Assembly (NCBI GenBank): GCA_027012135.1
Contig: JALUZF010000137.1
Location: 946-64,945 of the forward strand
DNA length: 64,000 bases
Origin: Gammaproteobacteria bacterium
Lineage (GTDB): Bacteria > Pseudomonadota > Gammaproteobacteria > GRL18
Direction of reading: 5' to 3'
Part shown: positions 14,335 to 22,843 of the stretch, one piece after another
Layout of the letters: each line of letters opens with the position of its first letter
Numbering within the stretch: the stretch's first letter is position 1
The notes under the pieces: generated by a model
What the model was told of the DNA's origin: nothing
What the model saw: the letters and a program-made list of their open reading frames with translations, nothing else
Databases searched by the model: none
Position numbers and translations under genes: made by a program

Positions 14335-14658
14335 TTACTGTGCAGGCGGCTTGTAGTTAGGATCATTGGGATTCTTGAAAATAAACTGTTTGTCATCACC
14401 TTCTACTTCACTGTCCACTTCGACAAAGTCGATTTCCATGCCGTTTAACAGATCCACCATGTCATTATTGACAATAATTTTAACTCCGCGGGATTCAACC
14501 AGGGTATCGTCTTCCTTCTGGGTATCAAAACCCATAAGATACTGAAATCCCTGTATTTTAGAATGGGTGGTAACTGCCACTCTTAAGGGATCATCACTGC
14601 CGCTGGCTTTAATCTGTTCCAGAATTTGATTAGCTGCATCTTCTGTCAGTTTTATCAT
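14335..14658 (-). CDS. dsrR: DsrR (IscA/A-type-carrier-like protein lacking the cluster-binding cysteines)
   Basis: 107 aa with an IscA/HesB-like sequence and no cysteine at all. 4-bp overlap with dsrN upstream, as expected for dsrNR. Confidence 0.75.
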   Translation of the reverse strand: MIKLTEDAANQILEQIKASGSDDPLRVAVTTHSKIQGFQYLMGFDTQKEDDTLVESRGVKIIVNNDMVDLLNGMEIDFVEVDSEVEGDDKQFIFKNPNDPNYKPPAQ

Positions 14659-16142
14659 AGTTTCCTCTCACTTGATTGTTTTGTGTTAGTTTGTATTAGT
14701 TGTTTGTTTGTGGGTATATGTTTGCATTGCTTAATAAATTTAACAAATCGGCTTGTCCAGTGATTCTGGGTCGTGTCCTGTAAATGGGCATAACAGGCCA
14801 GTAGATTTTTATAGATGATGCCGTCATGATGACCGTCAATGCCGCTGCCGCGATGGATAGTATAGGCAAATGTTAAGGGCTGCTGAATATTCACCAGGTG
14901 GGAATAGTGAAACTCATGGGCAGAAATGATTTTTTCTGCGTTAATTTCTTTATCTATAGTATCACTGCCACTCTCAAGCCTTGGCCAGGGCATGGCTTCA
15001 GTCTCTGTAAAGCGGATTAAACCGCGTCCCTGAGGGGTTTCTTCCATTCTGGCATCAGCGGGAATAACGCCGGCCATGGCATATTGTATATCATTCCAGA
15101 TAATATTCTGACATAAATACATCAGCCCGCCGCATTCAGCGTAGGTGGGGAGGCCGTTTTCAATGGCTTCCTGTATTGACTGACGAAAGGACTGATTGGC
15201 ATTAAGCTCCTGCAGCCGTTCTTCAGGGAAGCCGCCGCCGATAAACAGGCCGTCAATATCCTCAGGTAAGCGAGTATCTTTCAGGGAATTGACTTCAATC
15301 AGCTGTGCTCCGGCCTGTTCCAGTGCTTCCAGATCACCGGGGTAGTAAAATCCAAAGGCTGAATCATTAATATAGGCCAGGCGGATATCAGCGGCTATCG
15401 GCTGAGTATTAGGAAGCGATCTAATGGTACTTTTAAGATGTTTTGGGGAATGATGGTGACTGATGTCTATAATTTGTTCAAGATCGGTCTGGGCTGAAAT
15501 AATGGTACCGATATCATTAATTTTCTGCTGGGCTTCACCATCTTCATTACTGGGCATCAGGCCCAGGTGCCGTTCTACAATTTCCAGACGTTTGTCTCTG
15601 TGGATTGCGCCCAGTACCGGAACATCAGTATAATGTTCAATAACAGCCCGCAGCTTGCTCTCATGGCGGGAACCGCCCAGCTGATTAAGAATAACTCCGG
15701 CAATATTAATACCCGGATCAAAAGACTGGTAACCGAGGATCAGCGGGGCGATACCCCGGGTCATGCCCCGGGCATCCAGTACCAGTATAACCGGGGCATC
15801 GAGCAGTTTGGCAATGGCGGCATTACTATTACTGCCGTCCAGATCAAGGCCATCGTATAAACCCTTATTGCCTTCAATAATACTGATATCCGAAGCGGTT
15901 ATTTTTCTGGATACCAGTTGCAGAATCTCGTCTCTGGACATGGTGTTAAAGTCCAGGGAATAGCACGGCCGGCCGGCCGCACTGCCATGCCAGAGCGGAT
16001 CAATATAATCAGGACCCTTTTTAAAGGGCTGAACACGCAGATCTTTCTGCTTCATAGCGGCCAGCAGACCAATGGTAATGGTGGTTTTACCAGAGGATTT
16101 ATGGGCAGCAGAGATAAATAAGGGGGTTGAAGAAATCGACAT
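14655..16142 (-). CDS. dsrN: DsrN, cobyrinate a,c-diamide synthase-like siroheme amidase
   Basis: 495 aa, CobB/CbiA family. N-terminal AAHKSSGKTT, C-terminal amidotransferase Cys motif AECGGLMYL. Located in the dsr context. Confidence 0.85.
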   Translation of the reverse strand: MSISSTPLFISAAHKSSGKTTITIGLLAAMKQKDLRVQPFKKGPDYIDPLWHGSAAGRPCYSLDFNTMSRDEILQLVSRKITASDISIIEGNKGLYDGLDLDGSNSNAAIAKLLDAPVILVLDARGMTRGIAPLILGYQSFDPGINIAGVILNQLGGSRHESKLRAVIEHYTDVPVLGAIHRDKRLEIVERHLGLMPSNEDGEAQQKINDIGTIISAQTDLEQIIDISHHHSPKHLKSTIRSLPNTQPIAADIRLAYINDSAFGFYYPGDLEALEQAGAQLIEVNSLKDTRLPEDIDGLFIGGGFPEERLQELNANQSFRQSIQEAIENGLPTYAECGGLMYLCQNIIWNDIQYAMAGVIPADARMEETPQGRGLIRFTETEAMPWPRLESGSDTIDKEINAEKIISAHEFHYSHLVNIQQPLTFAYTIHRGSGIDGHHDGIIYKNLLACYAHLQDTTQNHWTSRFVKFIKQCKHIPTNKQLIQTNTKQSSERKL

Positions 16143-16317: not shown

Positions 16318-16527
16318 TTAACGTTTCCAGCCTGAACCTTTTTCTTCGTGAGCCATATCCAGAACCTGAACGGCTTTATCCATATAGTCATTCTTATAGG
16401 TTTCTAAAGGATGACCGGCACCTGGATTGTAGTAATCATCAGGATGCATACCATTTTCATGCTCAAATTTGATAAATTCTCTTTGCATTTTAAGTAATTC
16501 TTGAATCAGTTCTGCTTTAGTGCTCAT
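16318..16527 (-). CDS. Small hypothetical protein (69 aa)
   Basis: Isolated ORF with its own terminator. No recognised domain. Confidence 0.5.
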   Translation of the reverse strand: MSTKAELIQELLKMQREFIKFEHENGMHPDDYYNPGAGHPLETYKNDYMDKAVQVLDMAHEEKGSGWKR

Positions 16528-16672
16528 TTCATATCTCCGAAAAACTGAATTAAACTCAGTTATAAGCTAAATATTTCGACATAATATATCTGAGAAGATT
16601 CTAATATACTATATCTACAATGGGTAGTGTTGAATGATAATTAAAATTTTGTTCATTCAGGTTAATGGCGTA

Positions 16673-17011
16673 TTAATAACCGCCTTTACGCTTGCTTTCT
16701 GGTAAGCCTGAAATACGGCCGCCCTGTTTGCTGGGATCTTTTGGAAACAGATCATACAGATCTTTAGAGCCAATCTTTTCACCCCAGGTTGCACTCATTT
16801 CTTTAATCATGGTGCGGGTATTGGGTTGCTTGCCGCCATTATTGATGTACTGGTCACGCAGGTAGTTAATAAGATCCCAGTGTCTGTCTGTCAGCTCAAG
16901 ACCTTCTTCTGCCGCCATCTGTTTTGCCAGATCTTCACTCCAGTCATTAATGTCGACCAGGTAACCGTTAGGGGTGGTTTCTATTTCTTTACCTTCAAAA
17001 GTAATGGCCAT
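16673..17011 (-). CDS. DsrC/TusE-family protein without any cysteine (RspA-type paralogue)
   Basis: 112 aa, collinear with DsrC/TusE (FEGKEIETTPNGYL, HWDLINYLRDQY, DLYDLFPKDPSKQGGRISGLP). The C-terminus is ESKRKGGY instead of the PxxGC(V) arm. No Cys residues. Confidence 0.85.
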   Translation of the reverse strand: MAITFEGKEIETTPNGYLVDINDWSEDLAKQMAAEEGLELTDRHWDLINYLRDQYINNGGKQPNTRTMIKEMSATWGEKIGSKDLYDLFPKDPSKQGGRISGLPESKRKGGY

Positions 17012-17061
17012 AAATCTGCTCCGTAAACTTATATTGGATAAAACATTATTGGATAAAATAC

Positions 17062-17085
17062 GATAATAAATTCAGATTTATTATC
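17062..17085. promoter_or_regulatory. Perfect 10-bp inverted repeat upstream of the Cys-less dsrC-like gene
   Basis: gataataaat-tcag-atttattatc read directly, 51-74 nt upstream of the start at 17011. Candidate operator, though the AT-rich context lowers its significance. Confidence 0.3.
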
Positions 17086-17133
17086 ACTAAAAACTTAATA
17101 AATTGAATAGGAAATAATATATTAGTTAAAAAT

Positions 17134-17160
17134 AAAAAACACCTCTCAAAAGAGATAGGT
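17134..17160 (-). terminator. Putative terminator after the Cas6-like gene
   Basis: The minus strand reads acctatctc-tttt-gagaggt followed by a U-run. The stem has a 2-nt bulge. Confidence 0.4.
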
Positions 17161-17180: not shown

Positions 17181-17864
17181 CTAATCGGCGTTAACCGCAG
17201 TGATACCTTTCTGGGGGATGAATACCCCACATCCATAACTATAAAAGTCACCTACCCCGTTTTCCTGCAGGAGAATCGATTCTTCAGGGCTGATGTCCGC
17301 TATCATCAGGCTGCGGGTTTTAATTGGGCCACTGGGTGTGCTTAAAGTATGGGACTTGCCGCATAACATTTTACGCACATCAATATCCATGGCCTGGATT
17401 TGCTGGTAAATGACCTTTAAAAAAGCCTCTTCATCATTATCAGTGTTCGGAACATGGACATGACGAGAAACCAGTGTTGTTAAGGTACTTAATAACTGTT
17501 GTTCAGATTGGCCAAAAGTTAGCTTGAAGCCGTCAACGGTAATTTTTTTACCGGTTAAAGTCCGGGTATCTTCAATGCGGTGTCTGGGTACCCGTAGTTT
17601 CAGCCGGGTACGGCGGGAAAGCTGAATGACTTCATCATTAAATTCATCAGAACGTACCCAGCCGTTTCCTGATTGCGGGATATAAATATGATGCACAGCA
17701 CATTGAGATTCATCCTTGAACCAGGGCAGAAGCTCATTAATGGCATTGGTCAGGGACCAGGCATGATCCAGTTTGATCTGTTTACAATCCAGTTTAAATG
17801 ATAAATCAACGACTTTATCCGGTGCCTGAAATTCCTGTGGCTTTTCTTCTTCACTCCAGAACAT
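17181..17864 (-). CDS. Orphan Cas6/Cmx6-like RAMP protein
   Basis: 227 aa. N-terminal block VVDLSFKLDCKQIKLDHAWSLTNAINELLPW and C-terminal glycine-rich loop GVGDFYSYGCGVFIP match my recollection of the type I-MYXAN Cas6/Cmx6 family. No HMM search was run. Confidence 0.6.
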   Translation of the reverse strand: MFWSEEEKPQEFQAPDKVVDLSFKLDCKQIKLDHAWSLTNAINELLPWFKDESQCAVHHIYIPQSGNGWVRSDEFNDEVIQLSRRTRLKLRVPRHRIEDTRTLTGKKITVDGFKLTFGQSEQQLLSTLTTLVSRHVHVPNTDNDEEAFLKVIYQQIQAMDIDVRKMLCGKSHTLSTPSGPIKTRSLMIADISPEESILLQENGVGDFYSYGCGVFIPQKGITAVNAD

Positions 17865-17978: not shown

Positions 17979-18167
17979 TCAGGTTGGACTGGTAAATTTG
18001 GCTTCCAGATCAGATTCCCACTCATCAGGAGTATCAGGGAAGGGCGGTTTAATATCAATATCAAAAAACATTTCACCGTCCCGAGCCCTGGACTGAATAA
18101 AACGGATTAAATCGGCATAGGATTCAAGCTGATGATTCTGTATTAAAACTTCACTTAAAATTAACAT
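17979..18167 (-). CDS. Small acidic hypothetical protein (62 aa)
   Basis: Isolated ORF facing away from dsrA. No recognised domain. Confidence 0.4.
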   Translation of the reverse strand: MLILSEVLIQNHQLESYADLIRFIQSRARDGEMFFDIDIKPPFPDTPDEWESDLEAKFTSPT

Positions 18168-18776: not shown

Positions 18777-20036
18777 GTGCCTAAAGTCAAGATCTATGAT
18801 ACTCCGATGTTGGATGAGCTGGAAAATGGTGAATGGCCAAGCTTCATCAGCGGCATTAAGCGTTTAAGAGATGACCATCCGAATGAGCGTATCAATAATA
18901 TGGTTAATGGCCTGCTGGGTCAGCTGGAACATTCTTATGAAACTCGCATGGGTTGGTGGAAAGGCGGTACCGTATCTGTATTCGGTTACGGCGGCGGTAT
19001 TATTCCACGTTTTTCGGAAGTTGCTGAGCACTTCCCTGAATCCAAAGAATTTCACACTGTACGTGTTCAGCCGCCGGCGGGTAACTTCTACACCGCTGAT
19101 ATCCTGAATAAACTGGCGGATGACTGGGAGCAGCACGGCTCAGGCCTGCAGACGTTCCATGGTCAGACCGGTAACATTATGTTTATTGGTTCGACTACCG
19201 ATGAAATGCAGCCGTTCTTTGACAAAATCAATGCTTACGGTTGGGACCTTGGTGGTGCCGGCCCCTGTGTTCGTACTGCAATGGCCTGTGTTGGTGCGGC
19301 CCGTTGTGAACACTCCTGTACTAACGAACACGGTTTAATGCGTCACCTGGTCAATGAATTCCAGGACGATCTGCACAGACCGGCTCTGCCCTACAAGTGG
19401 AAGATTAAAGTATCCGGTTGTCCAAATGACTGCACCAACGCCATTGAACGTGCTGATATGGCCGTGATTGGTATCTGGCGCGATGACATGAAAGTGGACC
19501 AGGAAGAAGTTAAAAAGTTTGTTGAAGCCAAGGGTCGTGACTACGTTATCGATAACGTTACTGACCGTTGTCCTTCCAATGCCATTAAACTGAATGACGA
19601 CAACACTGTGGACATTAACAACCAGGAATGTGTTCGTTGTATGCATTGTATCAATGTTATGACCAAAGCCCTGGCGCCTGGTGATGACACGGGTGTAACC
19701 ATTCTTATCGGCGGTAAGCGTACTCTGAAGATTGGTGACATGATGGGTACTGTGGTTGTTCCATTTATGAAAGTGGATACCATGGATCAAATCGAAGCAC
19801 TGGTTGAACTGACCGGTGAAATGATTGATTTCTTCGCAGAAAACGCTCTGGAACACGAACGTACCGGTGAAATGATTGAACGTATTGGTCTGGTTAACTA
19901 CCTGGAAGGTTTAGGTTTAGATCTGGATCCCAATATGGTCAGCGAGCCGCGTCAATGTTCATACGTACGTATGGATGGCTGGGATGAAGAAGTTAAGAAG
20001 TGGTATGACAAGAAAGCTGAAGCAGCTTCTGCATAA
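18777..20036 (+). CDS. dsrA: Reverse-type dissimilatory sulfite reductase alpha subunit
   Basis: 419 aa. GTG start 6 nt after GGGAG. Siroheme/[4Fe-4S] Cys motifs (CVRTAMACVGAARC, CPNDC) and a ferredoxin insert (CVRCMHC). Confidence 0.95.
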   Translation: MPKVKIYDTPMLDELENGEWPSFISGIKRLRDDHPNERINNMVNGLLGQLEHSYETRMGWWKGGTVSVFGYGGGIIPRFSEVAEHFPESKEFHTVRVQPPAGNFYTADILNKLADDWEQHGSGLQTFHGQTGNIMFIGSTTDEMQPFFDKINAYGWDLGGAGPCVRTAMACVGAARCEHSCTNEHGLMRHLVNEFQDDLHRPALPYKWKIKVSGCPNDCTNAIERADMAVIGIWRDDMKVDQEEVKKFVEAKGRDYVIDNVTDRCPSNAIKLNDDNTVDINNQECVRCMHCINVMTKALAPGDDTGVTILIGGKRTLKIGDMMGTVVVPFMKVDTMDQIEALVELTGEMIDFFAENALEHERTGEMIERIGLVNYLEGLGLDLDPNMVSEPRQCSYVRMDGWDEEVKKWYDKKAEAASA

Positions 20037-20136: not shown

Positions 20137-21213
20137 ATGGCTGCAGATAAACCAAAAATGCCTATCGAATCGGGAGCTCCAGACGGCTTCCAGTATATGC
20201 ACCCAACCATGCGCAGAAACTTTGGTCAGTGGAAATATCATGAAAGACCACGTCCAGGTGTACTGAAGCACGTTGCACACAGCGGTGATGAAATCTACAC
20301 CATTCGTGTCGGTACTTCCCGTATTCTGGATGTATTCACTCTGCGTGAAATTACCCGTATTGCTAACGAACTGGGTGACGGCTTTATCCGTTTCACTATT
20401 CGTTCCAACCTTGAATACATGGTTGACGACGAAGCAAAAGTAGCACCAATGATCGAAGCGATTGAAAAAGCCGGTCTGATTGTCGGTGGTACAGGTCCTA
20501 CTATTACTTCACCTTCTCACACACAGGGCTGGCTGCACTGTGACATCCCAGGTTCTGATGCTTCTGGCGTTGTTAAGTCCATGATGGATGAGCTGGTAGA
20601 AGAATTTAAACGTGAAGAAATGCCTAACCGCGTTCACATTACTACTTCCTGCTGTCAGATTAACTGTGGTGGGCAGGGTGATATTGCGATTAACATTCAG
20701 CACACCAAGCCACCCAAGATTGCTCACGAACTGGTAGCCAATGCCTGTGAACGTCCAACCGTTGTTGCCCGTTGCCCGGTTGCTGCCATTCGTCCTGCCA
20801 TGGTTGACGGTCATCCAACTCTGGAAGTTGATGAGAAGAAATGTATCTGTTGTGGTGCATGTTACCCACCATGTCCTCCAATGCTGATTAACGACGCGGT
20901 TTACACTACCCTGGCTATCTGGGTTGGTGGTAATCACTCAAACGCTCGTGGCAAGCCTACTTTCCAGAAACTGGTTGCGGCTGGCATTCCAAACAACCCA
21001 CCACGCTGGCCTGAAGCTACCGCTTTAGTTAAGCGTATCCTGAAAGTCTACAAAGAAGACGCTAAGGACTGGGAACGTATGAATGACTGGATTGAGCGTA
21101 TCGGCTGGTTTGGTTTCTTTGAAAAGACCGGTCTGCCATTCACCAAGTTCCATATTGATGACTGGAGAGGCGCGCGTAACAGCCTGAACGCTTCTACGCA
21201 TATCCGCTTTTAA
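20137..21213 (+). CDS. dsrB: Reverse-type dissimilatory sulfite reductase beta subunit
   Basis: 358 aa, collinear with DsrB. Ferredoxin-like CICCGACYPPCP and the TSCCQINCGG cluster motif. Confidence 0.95.
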   Translation: MAADKPKMPIESGAPDGFQYMHPTMRRNFGQWKYHERPRPGVLKHVAHSGDEIYTIRVGTSRILDVFTLREITRIANELGDGFIRFTIRSNLEYMVDDEAKVAPMIEAIEKAGLIVGGTGPTITSPSHTQGWLHCDIPGSDASGVVKSMMDELVEEFKREEMPNRVHITTSCCQINCGGQGDIAINIQHTKPPKIAHELVANACERPTVVARCPVAAIRPAMVDGHPTLEVDEKKCICCGACYPPCPPMLINDAVYTTLAIWVGGNHSNARGKPTFQKLVAAGIPNNPPRWPEATALVKRILKVYKEDAKDWERMNDWIERIGWFGFFEKTGLPFTKFHIDDWRGARNSLNASTHIRF

Positions 21214-22507: not shown

Positions 22508-22843
22508 ATGGCTACTATTACTGTAGACGGTAAAGAGATCGAAGTAGACGAAGAAGGCTATCTGGTAAACCTGAGTGACTGGTTCCCAGCTGTAGCTGAA
22601 GAAATGGCTAAAATCGATGAAGTTGAACTAGGTGAAGATCACTGGGACATCATTAACTTCCTGCGTGAGTACTACGAAGAGTATCAAATTGCTCCAGCAG
22701 TACGTGTACTGACTAAAGCAGTTGCTAAAAAACTGGGTAAGGAAAAAGGTAACTCTAAGTACCTTTATGAATTATTCCCATATGGCCCTGGTAAGCAAGC
22801 ATGTAAATTTGCTGGTCTGCCTAAGCCAACTGGTTGTGTATAA
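22508..22843 (+). CDS. dsrC: DsrC
   Basis: 111 aa. The C-terminal arm CKFAGLPKPTGCV carries both redox-active cysteines. Confidence 0.95.
   Translation: MATITVDGKEIEVDEEGYLVNLSDWFPAVAEEMAKIDEVELGEDHWDIINFLREYYEEYQIAPAVRVLTKAVAKKLGKEKGNSKYLYELFPYGPGKQACKFAGLPKPTGCV

Follow-up and report, generated by a model that had tools for sequence, protein, structure and literature searches.

The stretch of gammaproteobacterial DNA analysed here (64,000 nucleotides, hereafter the window) carries, at positions 16673-17011 of its minus strand, a gene of 112 codons that starts with ATG and has a GGAG motif 8 nt upstream. Its product, a cysteine-free paralogue of DsrC, is called DsrCL below. The gene lies 169 nt downstream of Cas6L (17181-17864, minus strand), which codes for a CRISPR-free Cas6/Cmx6-like protein (PF09559, 2.2e-57; TIGR02807, 1.3e-31) and is its usual upstream neighbour in Gammaproteobacteria. 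On the same strand, s62 (17979-18167), encoding a 62-aa acidic protein recognised by synteny in most gammaproteobacterial loci, is the first gene of a module divergent from dsrA, and s69 (16318-16527), encoding a 69-aa protein that is syntenic in many loci, is a frequent downstream neighbour. Profile searches gave no family match for s62 or for s69. In the window's family, s69 is followed on the minus strand by dsrN (14655-16142) and dsrR (14335-14658). On the plus strand, dsrA (18777-20036, with a TIGR02064 match at the corresponding place of the window's genome) is followed by dsrB (20137-21213), both divergent from the module, and by the gene of an authentic DsrC (22508-22843; PF04358, 1.2e-45), which has both CysB and CysA and ends in ...KQACKFAGLPKPTGCV. 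The placement of the DsrCL gene beside a Cas6-like gene and near the dsr promoter, as given by an earlier sequence-only reading of this DNA, thus agrees with the 169-nt spacer and with the divergent orientation relative to dsrA.

Profile searches assign DsrCL to the DsrC/TusE superfamily (PF04358, 1.8e-33, 115.6 bits for a cut-off of 24.9; TIGR03342, 8.9e-29, 100 bits for a cut-off of 53.5). The protein is collinear with the authentic DsrC of the window and 44% identical to it. An AlphaFold2 model computed with 20 orthologues as input (pLDDT 87, residues 109-112 at the tip being disordered) shows the two-strand hairpin, the helical bundle and the flexible C-terminal arm of the DsrC fold, and it superimposes on the solved DsrC structures 2XSJ_C, 2V4J_C, 1YX3 and 1SAU with TM scores of 0.72-0.83 (Foldseek). 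DsrCL contains no cysteine at all and its C-terminus reads ...KQGGRISGLPESKRKGGY (tail GLPESKRKGGY). A bona fide DsrC has a penultimate CysA and a CysB ten residues upstream, within a motif of the type AGLPKPTGC[VA]; the corresponding region of DsrCL is QGG...GLPESKRKGGY. Taken together, the profile matches, the alignment and the missing cysteines bear out the earlier description of a collinear, cysteine-free DsrC/TusE paralogue. They also confirm that persulfide or trisulfide formation, a feature of DsrC, is impossible for DsrCL, since thiol chemistry of the DsrC type cannot occur in a protein with no cysteine.

TusE (E. coli YccK, a component of the tRNA 2-thiouridine sulfur relay) belongs to the same superfamily, TIGR03342. 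However, TusE depends on a conserved penultimate cysteine, which DsrCL does not have, and DsrCL scores 95.4 bits against the TusE equivalog NF008562, below the cut-off of 191. Proteins of this kind are often annotated automatically by JGI as 'tRNA 2-thiouridine synthesizing protein E'. Because of the missing cysteine and the score under the equivalog cut-off, this TusE annotation is, as judged from sequence, wrong for the whole group to which DsrCL belongs. In the present analysis, this group is defined as the KGGY clade of DsrC paralogues: proteins ending in ...[RK]KGGY-COOH, with Lys or Arg at position P+5 from the GLP hinge, with Gly at the position of CysB, and encoded in a genome with an rDsr system of the dsrABEFHC type. 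DsrCL shows all of these features. In a 112-aa tree that is poorly resolved, the KGGY proteins group together with only moderate support (SH-aLRT 87).

A family search of 5.8 billion proteins returned more than 1000 clusters for DsrCL. In the best 120 of these >1000 clusters, the proteins are 109-118 aa long, almost all of them 112 aa, cysteine is absent from 119 of the 120, and all tails read ...GLPE[ST][RK]RKGGY or a near variant (...[RK]KGGY). When one genome per species was scanned, DsrCL was found encoded in at least 556 species, and the hosts among the species listed belong to Gammaproteobacteria, Rhodobacteraceae and Hyphomicrobiales. Representatives that are ~50% identical have the tails QSTRKGGY, QVMRKGGY, RPFGKGGY and RPIRRDGY, and a 46%-identical copy from another genome ends in QPLGKGGY. 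Reading the sequences directly from hinge to tip gives P-K-P-T-G-C-V for DsrC and P-Q-P-L-G-K-G-G-Y for this KGGY copy. Thus, Lys (rarely Arg) stands at P+5 from the GLP hinge, the distance at which CysA stands in DsrC, and the position of CysB is occupied by Gly.

Comparison of the two families identifies 25 positions that are conserved and identical in both, the GLP hinge among them, and 12 positions that are fixed yet different. The latter include PNTR versus PAVR, W versus L, DPS versus GPx, and residues of the arm. DsrCL thus has in common with DsrC, as known from A. vinosum (1YX3) and from the D. vulgaris DsrABC complex (2V4J), the fold, the length, the acidic body, the AGLP hinge and the flexible arm, and both genes are found in the dsr locus. 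It differs by Gly in place of CysB, Lys in place of CysA and an arm extended by two residues to a GGY end; moreover, the PNTR, W76 and DPS motifs are found in the DsrCL clade only. The net charge of the globular body is -6.6 in DsrCL (pI ~4.7) and -7.3 in DsrC, whereas that of the arm is +3 and +2, respectively. The strongest conservation of DsrCL falls on the flexible, free C-terminal arm ending in ...KGGY. Two readings of the glycines of this tail were considered and appear unlikely: a carrier of the ubiquitin-like or thiocarboxylate type (the fold differs from beta-grasp, and the neighbours include neither an E1 nor a JAMM gene) and a glycyl-radical motif (RxxGY; there is no activase, and many hosts are aerobes).

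The distribution of DsrCL was examined in a sample of 250 gammaproteobacterial genomes drawn evenly across families. DsrCL is present in 72 of them (71 at E<=1e-35, one at 2e-34), dsrA in 78, and both together in 71. In G158, the only genome with DsrCL and no dsrA match, the module runs up to the end of a contig. DsrCL was found in none of the ~171 dsrA-negative Gammaproteobacteria. Fisher's test for this association gives p ~5e-53, a value that is overstated since the genomes are related. In 18 genomes the DsrCL gene is unlinked to dsrAB, and all 18 have a dsrA scoring above the curated cut-off. At the phylum level, DsrCL was found in 0 of 354 dsrA-negative genomes; it accompanies canonical dsrABEFHCMKLJOP clusters. 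A large group of genomes with a low-scoring dsrA, including those of the four dsrABL-type loci read, is without it. DsrCL is therefore confined to genomes that have a canonical oxidative Dsr system. The dsrABL-type loci (L116, L117, L118 and L121, from a large set of other Pseudomonadota genomes) consist of dsrA-dsrB-dsrL clusters whose DsrAB is ~50-59% identical to that of the window; genomes of this set often have two copies, with no dsrEFHC nearby and no DsrCL.

Not all genomes with dsrA have DsrCL. Six sampled dsrA-positive Gammaproteobacteria are without the gene, and in one more (G261; locus L114, C90:55500-68500) it is a pseudogene split by ~10 kb of inserted DNA. The N-terminal 29 codons are found beside the Cas6-like gene and the C-terminal 44 codons ~10 kb away, the latter piece with an in-frame TGA counted by the genome search. 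These six genomes and the split gene show that DsrCL is dispensable in some lineages. At the other extreme, a 1.1-Mb genome has kept the four-gene DsrCL module beside dsrAB. At distant loci, the mean identity to the window's proteins is 68.7% for DsrCL, compared with 69.2% for DsrA, 74.6% for DsrB, 73.9% for DsrC, 69.9% for DsrE and 40.9% for Cas6L. Since its identity is close to that of DsrA and DsrE and far above that of Cas6L, DsrCL behaves as a core Dsr protein, unlike its neighbour. DsrCL thus combines the DsrC fold with a sequence on which purifying selection acts strongly.

The genome of the window has two full-length dsrA matches on different contigs (2.4e-174 and 1.4e-173) and a single DsrCL. 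One dsrA is that of the window (18777-20036), the other lies outside it (G000 contig C125:4371-5582). They could reflect a second copy of dsrAB, or else heterogeneity of the strains or of the bin (contamination 4.59%).

The same genome encodes five members of the DsrC family: the true DsrC, DsrCL, and three proteins on other contigs. One of these (L003) is a cysteine-rich paralogue with the tail ...LACQIAGLPDCHCRGV, whose gene is beside that of a NiFe hydrogenase large subunit. The two others (L004 and L005) are further cysteine-less types with the tails LAGLPKPVEEVES (LPKPVEEVES) and NPSMGSVQ. In the tree, each of these two types falls in a clade of its own with 99% support, so that three cysteine-less clades are represented in this genome (by L002, L004 and L005). 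The DsrC-family search of the genome showed no classical single-Cys TusE.

DsrC-like proteins devoid of CysA have been named 'regulatory sulfur-related proteins' (RspA; Venceslau 2014 as quoted in PMC9371685 and PMC8477390). Under this definition, as transmitted in the citing papers, the label 'RspA-type' given to DsrCL in the sequence-only reading agrees with usage (PMC9371685): like RspA proteins, DsrCL is DsrC-like, lacks CysA and comes from a sulfur oxidiser. DsrCL is thus one member of a large clade that is already in the literature under the RspA label, at least as that label is quoted. However, the category as quoted is defined by an absence and its function is conjectural; the window's genome alone spans three cysteine-less clades. 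In the literature searched, where the definition is given second-hand, we found no experiment behind the label, and no description of the strict link of the KGGY clade to canonical rDsr or of its invariant tail. The main results of the present analysis are the strict tie of the clade to the canonical oxidative Dsr system, its invariant KGGY arm, in which Lys takes the position of CysA, and the fact that it can occur without its Cas6-like neighbour.

A. vinosum has a gene annotated as 'CRISPR-associated protein, Cas6-related' (Alvin_1248) three genes upstream of dsrA (Alvin_1251); no DsrC-like gene is annotated beside it (PMC11267869 Table S2). [quoted passage not shown] Alvin_1508 is ~7.6-fold down with the dsr genes on pyrite (PMC11267869 Table S2); the Weissgerber columns of that table look mis-registered and were left out. 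When the DsrC of 1YX3 was tracked through the sampled genomes, the best matches were only 85% identical, Chromatiaceae being outside the family and order searches.

The usual gammaproteobacterial module comprises s62, the Cas6-like gene, DsrCL and s69, in divergent orientation to dsrA. In other lineages, a TauD-like gene, known as dsrQ in the literature (PMC7596348), heads the module. Cas6L (PF09559) is present in 79 of 251 sampled Gammaproteobacteria. DsrCL and the Cas6-like gene are separable in both directions. On the one hand, 13 alphaproteobacterial genomes have DsrCL and dsrA with no PF09559 match. On the other hand, G028, G043, G089, G191 and G219 have Cas6L and no DsrCL, and G261 has Cas6L with a disrupted DsrCL; G227 is the only gammaproteobacterial genome lacking intact DsrCL that is also without a Cas6-like gene. 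In four Rhodobacteraceae loci (L032, L060, L062 and L084), DsrCL is located within or beside rnpA-yidD, with yidC further downstream in L060, and no dsr gene occurs within 8 kb. A gene for a 339-aa PP-loop ATPase (PF01171) stands just downstream of DsrCL in three of these four loci and ~3 kb away in L084; as a functional partner it was set aside, being judged lineage-specific and found in these four loci only. In one non-gammaproteobacterial locus (L122, G541:C33:111000-130500), dsrABEFHCMKLJOPN and DsrCL share a strand, DsrCL following dsrN at a distance of ~3 kb; the gene divergent from dsrA is s62-like, and no Cas6-like gene is found in the 19.5-kb region read. Among the closest relatives of the window (L006-L009, DsrCL 96% identical), several have DDE transposases (PF01609, PF13751, PF05598) between the s62 and Cas6-like genes, and a 200-aa ORF missing from the window is found at the same place.

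Several non-coding elements surround the gene. The perfect 10-bp palindrome reported in the sequence-only reading does exist upstream of DsrCL (GATAATAAAT-N4-ATTTATTATC, 17062-17085), but it is retained by the closest relatives only: it is kept as a 9-bp palindrome in three loci (L010, L011, L012) and is absent from L013-L025. When the 22%-GC spacer is shuffled under a Markov model, an arm as long as this one turns up in ~2% of cases (P ~0.02). In these alignments, the palindrome is conserved only within the genus. Between it and the start codon, a direct repeat (TATTGGATAAAA x2, 17032-17058) is likewise seen only in the closest relatives. A 45-nt block further upstream (CTATCTCTTTTGAGAGGTG...TAACTAATATATTAT, 17114-17158, minus strand) is conserved in L010-L025; with its short inverted repeat, T-run and TATATT/TATTAT box, it may serve as a terminator, promoter or operator. 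Alignment and folding delineate a second block, of 74 nt, between DsrCL and s69 (16556-16629, minus strand), with a 13-14-bp hairpin and a ATATATTAT box. Both blocks are conserved across family-level relatives, in spacers that are otherwise unalignable. Three ATATATTAT sites occur in the window, one of them in the 45-nt block and one in the 74-nt block. The two blocks are compatible with separate predicted promoters for the small genes in the window's family.

No terminator was detected by scanning the spacers that flank DsrCL, and the number of sites in the sigma-70/terminator scan is no higher than in shuffled sequence. A shared promoter of the type GTRTAT-N17-TATTAT was also considered and is not borne out within the window itself. 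In most other gammaproteobacterial lineages, no more than 45-90 nt separate DsrCL from the Cas6-like gene. Hence, being monocistronic is no family trait of DsrCL and is at best a local feature. Beyond the family, the DNA upstream of DsrCL is unconserved; the protein is ~70% identical across classes.

What, then, could be the role of DsrCL? [quoted passage not shown] The arm is the part of DsrC that enters both DsrAB and DsrK (bioRxiv 10.64898/2026.08.25.746951). Because the strongest constraint on DsrCL also bears on the arm, it can be suggested that DsrCL docks at the sites normally used by DsrC. We therefore favour, with a probability of about 0.4 and from sequence and model comparisons, a reading in which DsrCL would dock where DsrC docks, insert an unreactive arm and act as an effector, a placeholder or a brake. 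DsrCL would then be a dedicated non-thiol accessory of the canonical oxidative Dsr system (dsrABEFHCMKLJOP), in which the AGLP hinge and the acidic body of DsrC have been kept and the tip of the arm would have been rebuilt, with Lys at the CysA distance followed by Gly-Gly-Tyr. It would bind a partner that normally receives DsrC and place its KGGY arm in the pocket of that partner, most likely rDsrAB, with DsrK or DsrL as alternatives. As an unreactive mimic of DsrC acting at the protein level, it would be neither a sulfur carrier nor a DNA binder. Three points weigh against this mimicry. The arm of DsrCL, more basic than that of DsrC, may fit poorly in the sulfite channel of DsrAB; six dsrA-positive Gammaproteobacteria do without DsrCL and one has a split copy; and the tight gammaproteobacterial linkage to the Cas6-like protein is left unexplained by the model.

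The logic proposed for DsrCL would be comparable to that of DsrD. This small, non-essential winged-helix/HTH protein was originally presumed to regulate genes by binding DNA, but it binds DNA only non-specifically and turned out to activate the reductive DsrAB allosterically (PMC8794893). DsrD and DsrCL are both small, cysteine-free and HTH-containing, are encoded with dsrAB and mark one direction of the pathway. It should, however, be noted that the two folds are unrelated and that DsrD is indicative of the reductive type, DsrCL of the proteobacterial oxidative type. Moreover, the effect of DsrD on DsrAB is established (PMC8794893), whereas that of DsrCL is one that we infer.

Alternatively, in line with the sequence-only reading, DsrCL may be a regulator of the RspA type, whose HTH-like helices or basic arm would bind the dsr control region or mRNA and tune expression. 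The literature does assign CysA-less DsrC-like proteins to 'regulatory sulfur-related proteins', as quoted in PMC9371685, the gene is located within the dsrA-divergent region, conserved non-coding blocks flank it in the window's family, and its gammaproteobacterial neighbour is Cas6-like, hence of an RNA-binding fold family. Still, such a regulator seems rather unlikely to us. The body is acidic (pI 4.7, net -6.6), the HTH-like fold is common to every DsrC/TusE and is hence unspecific, and a conservation peak at the free C-terminal KGGY is hard to explain by nucleic-acid binding. No upstream DNA is conserved beyond the family despite a protein ~70% identical across classes, and the Rhodobacteraceae copy lies among rnpA, yidD and yidC, far from dsr. 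In addition, the conservation of DsrCL equals that of DsrA and DsrE, and an HTH-based inference has already failed for DsrD in the same pathway (PMC8794893). A DNA-binding regulator is thus less likely than the non-thiol mimic of DsrC, and a regulatory interpretation of DsrCL is plausible in a loose, protein-level sense only.

The arm has also features that could point to a modified swinging arm, in which Lys, or Gly-Gly after removal of Tyr, would become sulfur- or redox-active, DsrCL still being a carrier. The P+5 position after the GLP hinge, taken by CysA in DsrC, is fixed as Lys in DsrCL, KGGY is invariant, and the TauD-family dioxygenase that heads the module in other lineages (dsrQ; PMC7596348) is a candidate modifying enzyme. 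But the window's module has no TauD-like gene and no ligase or E1-like neighbour, the alphaproteobacterial loci read show no modifying enzyme that accompanies DsrCL, and the DsrC fold is not beta-grasp, all of which make such a modification improbable. The separability described above bears on another view, in which DsrCL would function only as part of a single complex, perhaps a ribonucleoprotein, with Cas6L and the small acidic proteins. The s62-Cas6L-DsrCL-s69 order of most gammaproteobacterial loci, with its spacers of 45-90 nt, would suit this view. However, the 13 alphaproteobacterial genomes with DsrCL and without Cas6L, the retention of Cas6L where DsrCL is missing (G028, G043, G089, G191, G219) or disrupted (G261), and evolutionary rates that are far apart (68.7% against 40.9%) leave an obligate partnership with Cas6L little credence. 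Finally, the loss of both catalytic cysteines and the missing or disrupted gene of some lineages might evoke a decaying, functionless dsrC duplicate. This is effectively refuted by the conservation data: across hundreds of species, the gene is intact, single-copy, 112 codons long and ~66-97% identical, with an invariant tail, and even a 1.1-Mb genome has kept it.

A bolder version of the arm hypothesis, to which we give small odds, would make KGGY a new protein-borne swinging arm, whose Lys would either be covalently modified or directly engage the siroheme/sulfite site of rDsrAB, perhaps assisted by the terminal Tyr or carboxylate. If true, DsrCL would be a catalytic or product-handling partner of rDsrAB and would belong to the core of the oxidative Dsr pathway, where it has so far been overlooked. 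This pathway powers sulfur oxidation in free-living and symbiotic Proteobacteria, and its accepted parts list does not include DsrCL. The DsrA-like conservation of DsrCL, its confinement to dsrABEFHC genomes and its retention in a 1.1-Mb, symbiont-sized genome suggest that a component is missing from that list, one that is experimentally tractable. Once its role is known, the mechanism and the regulation of rDsrAB could be described more precisely, the proteobacterial oxidative type would gain a cleaner genomic marker, and a widespread automatic TusE annotation would be corrected.
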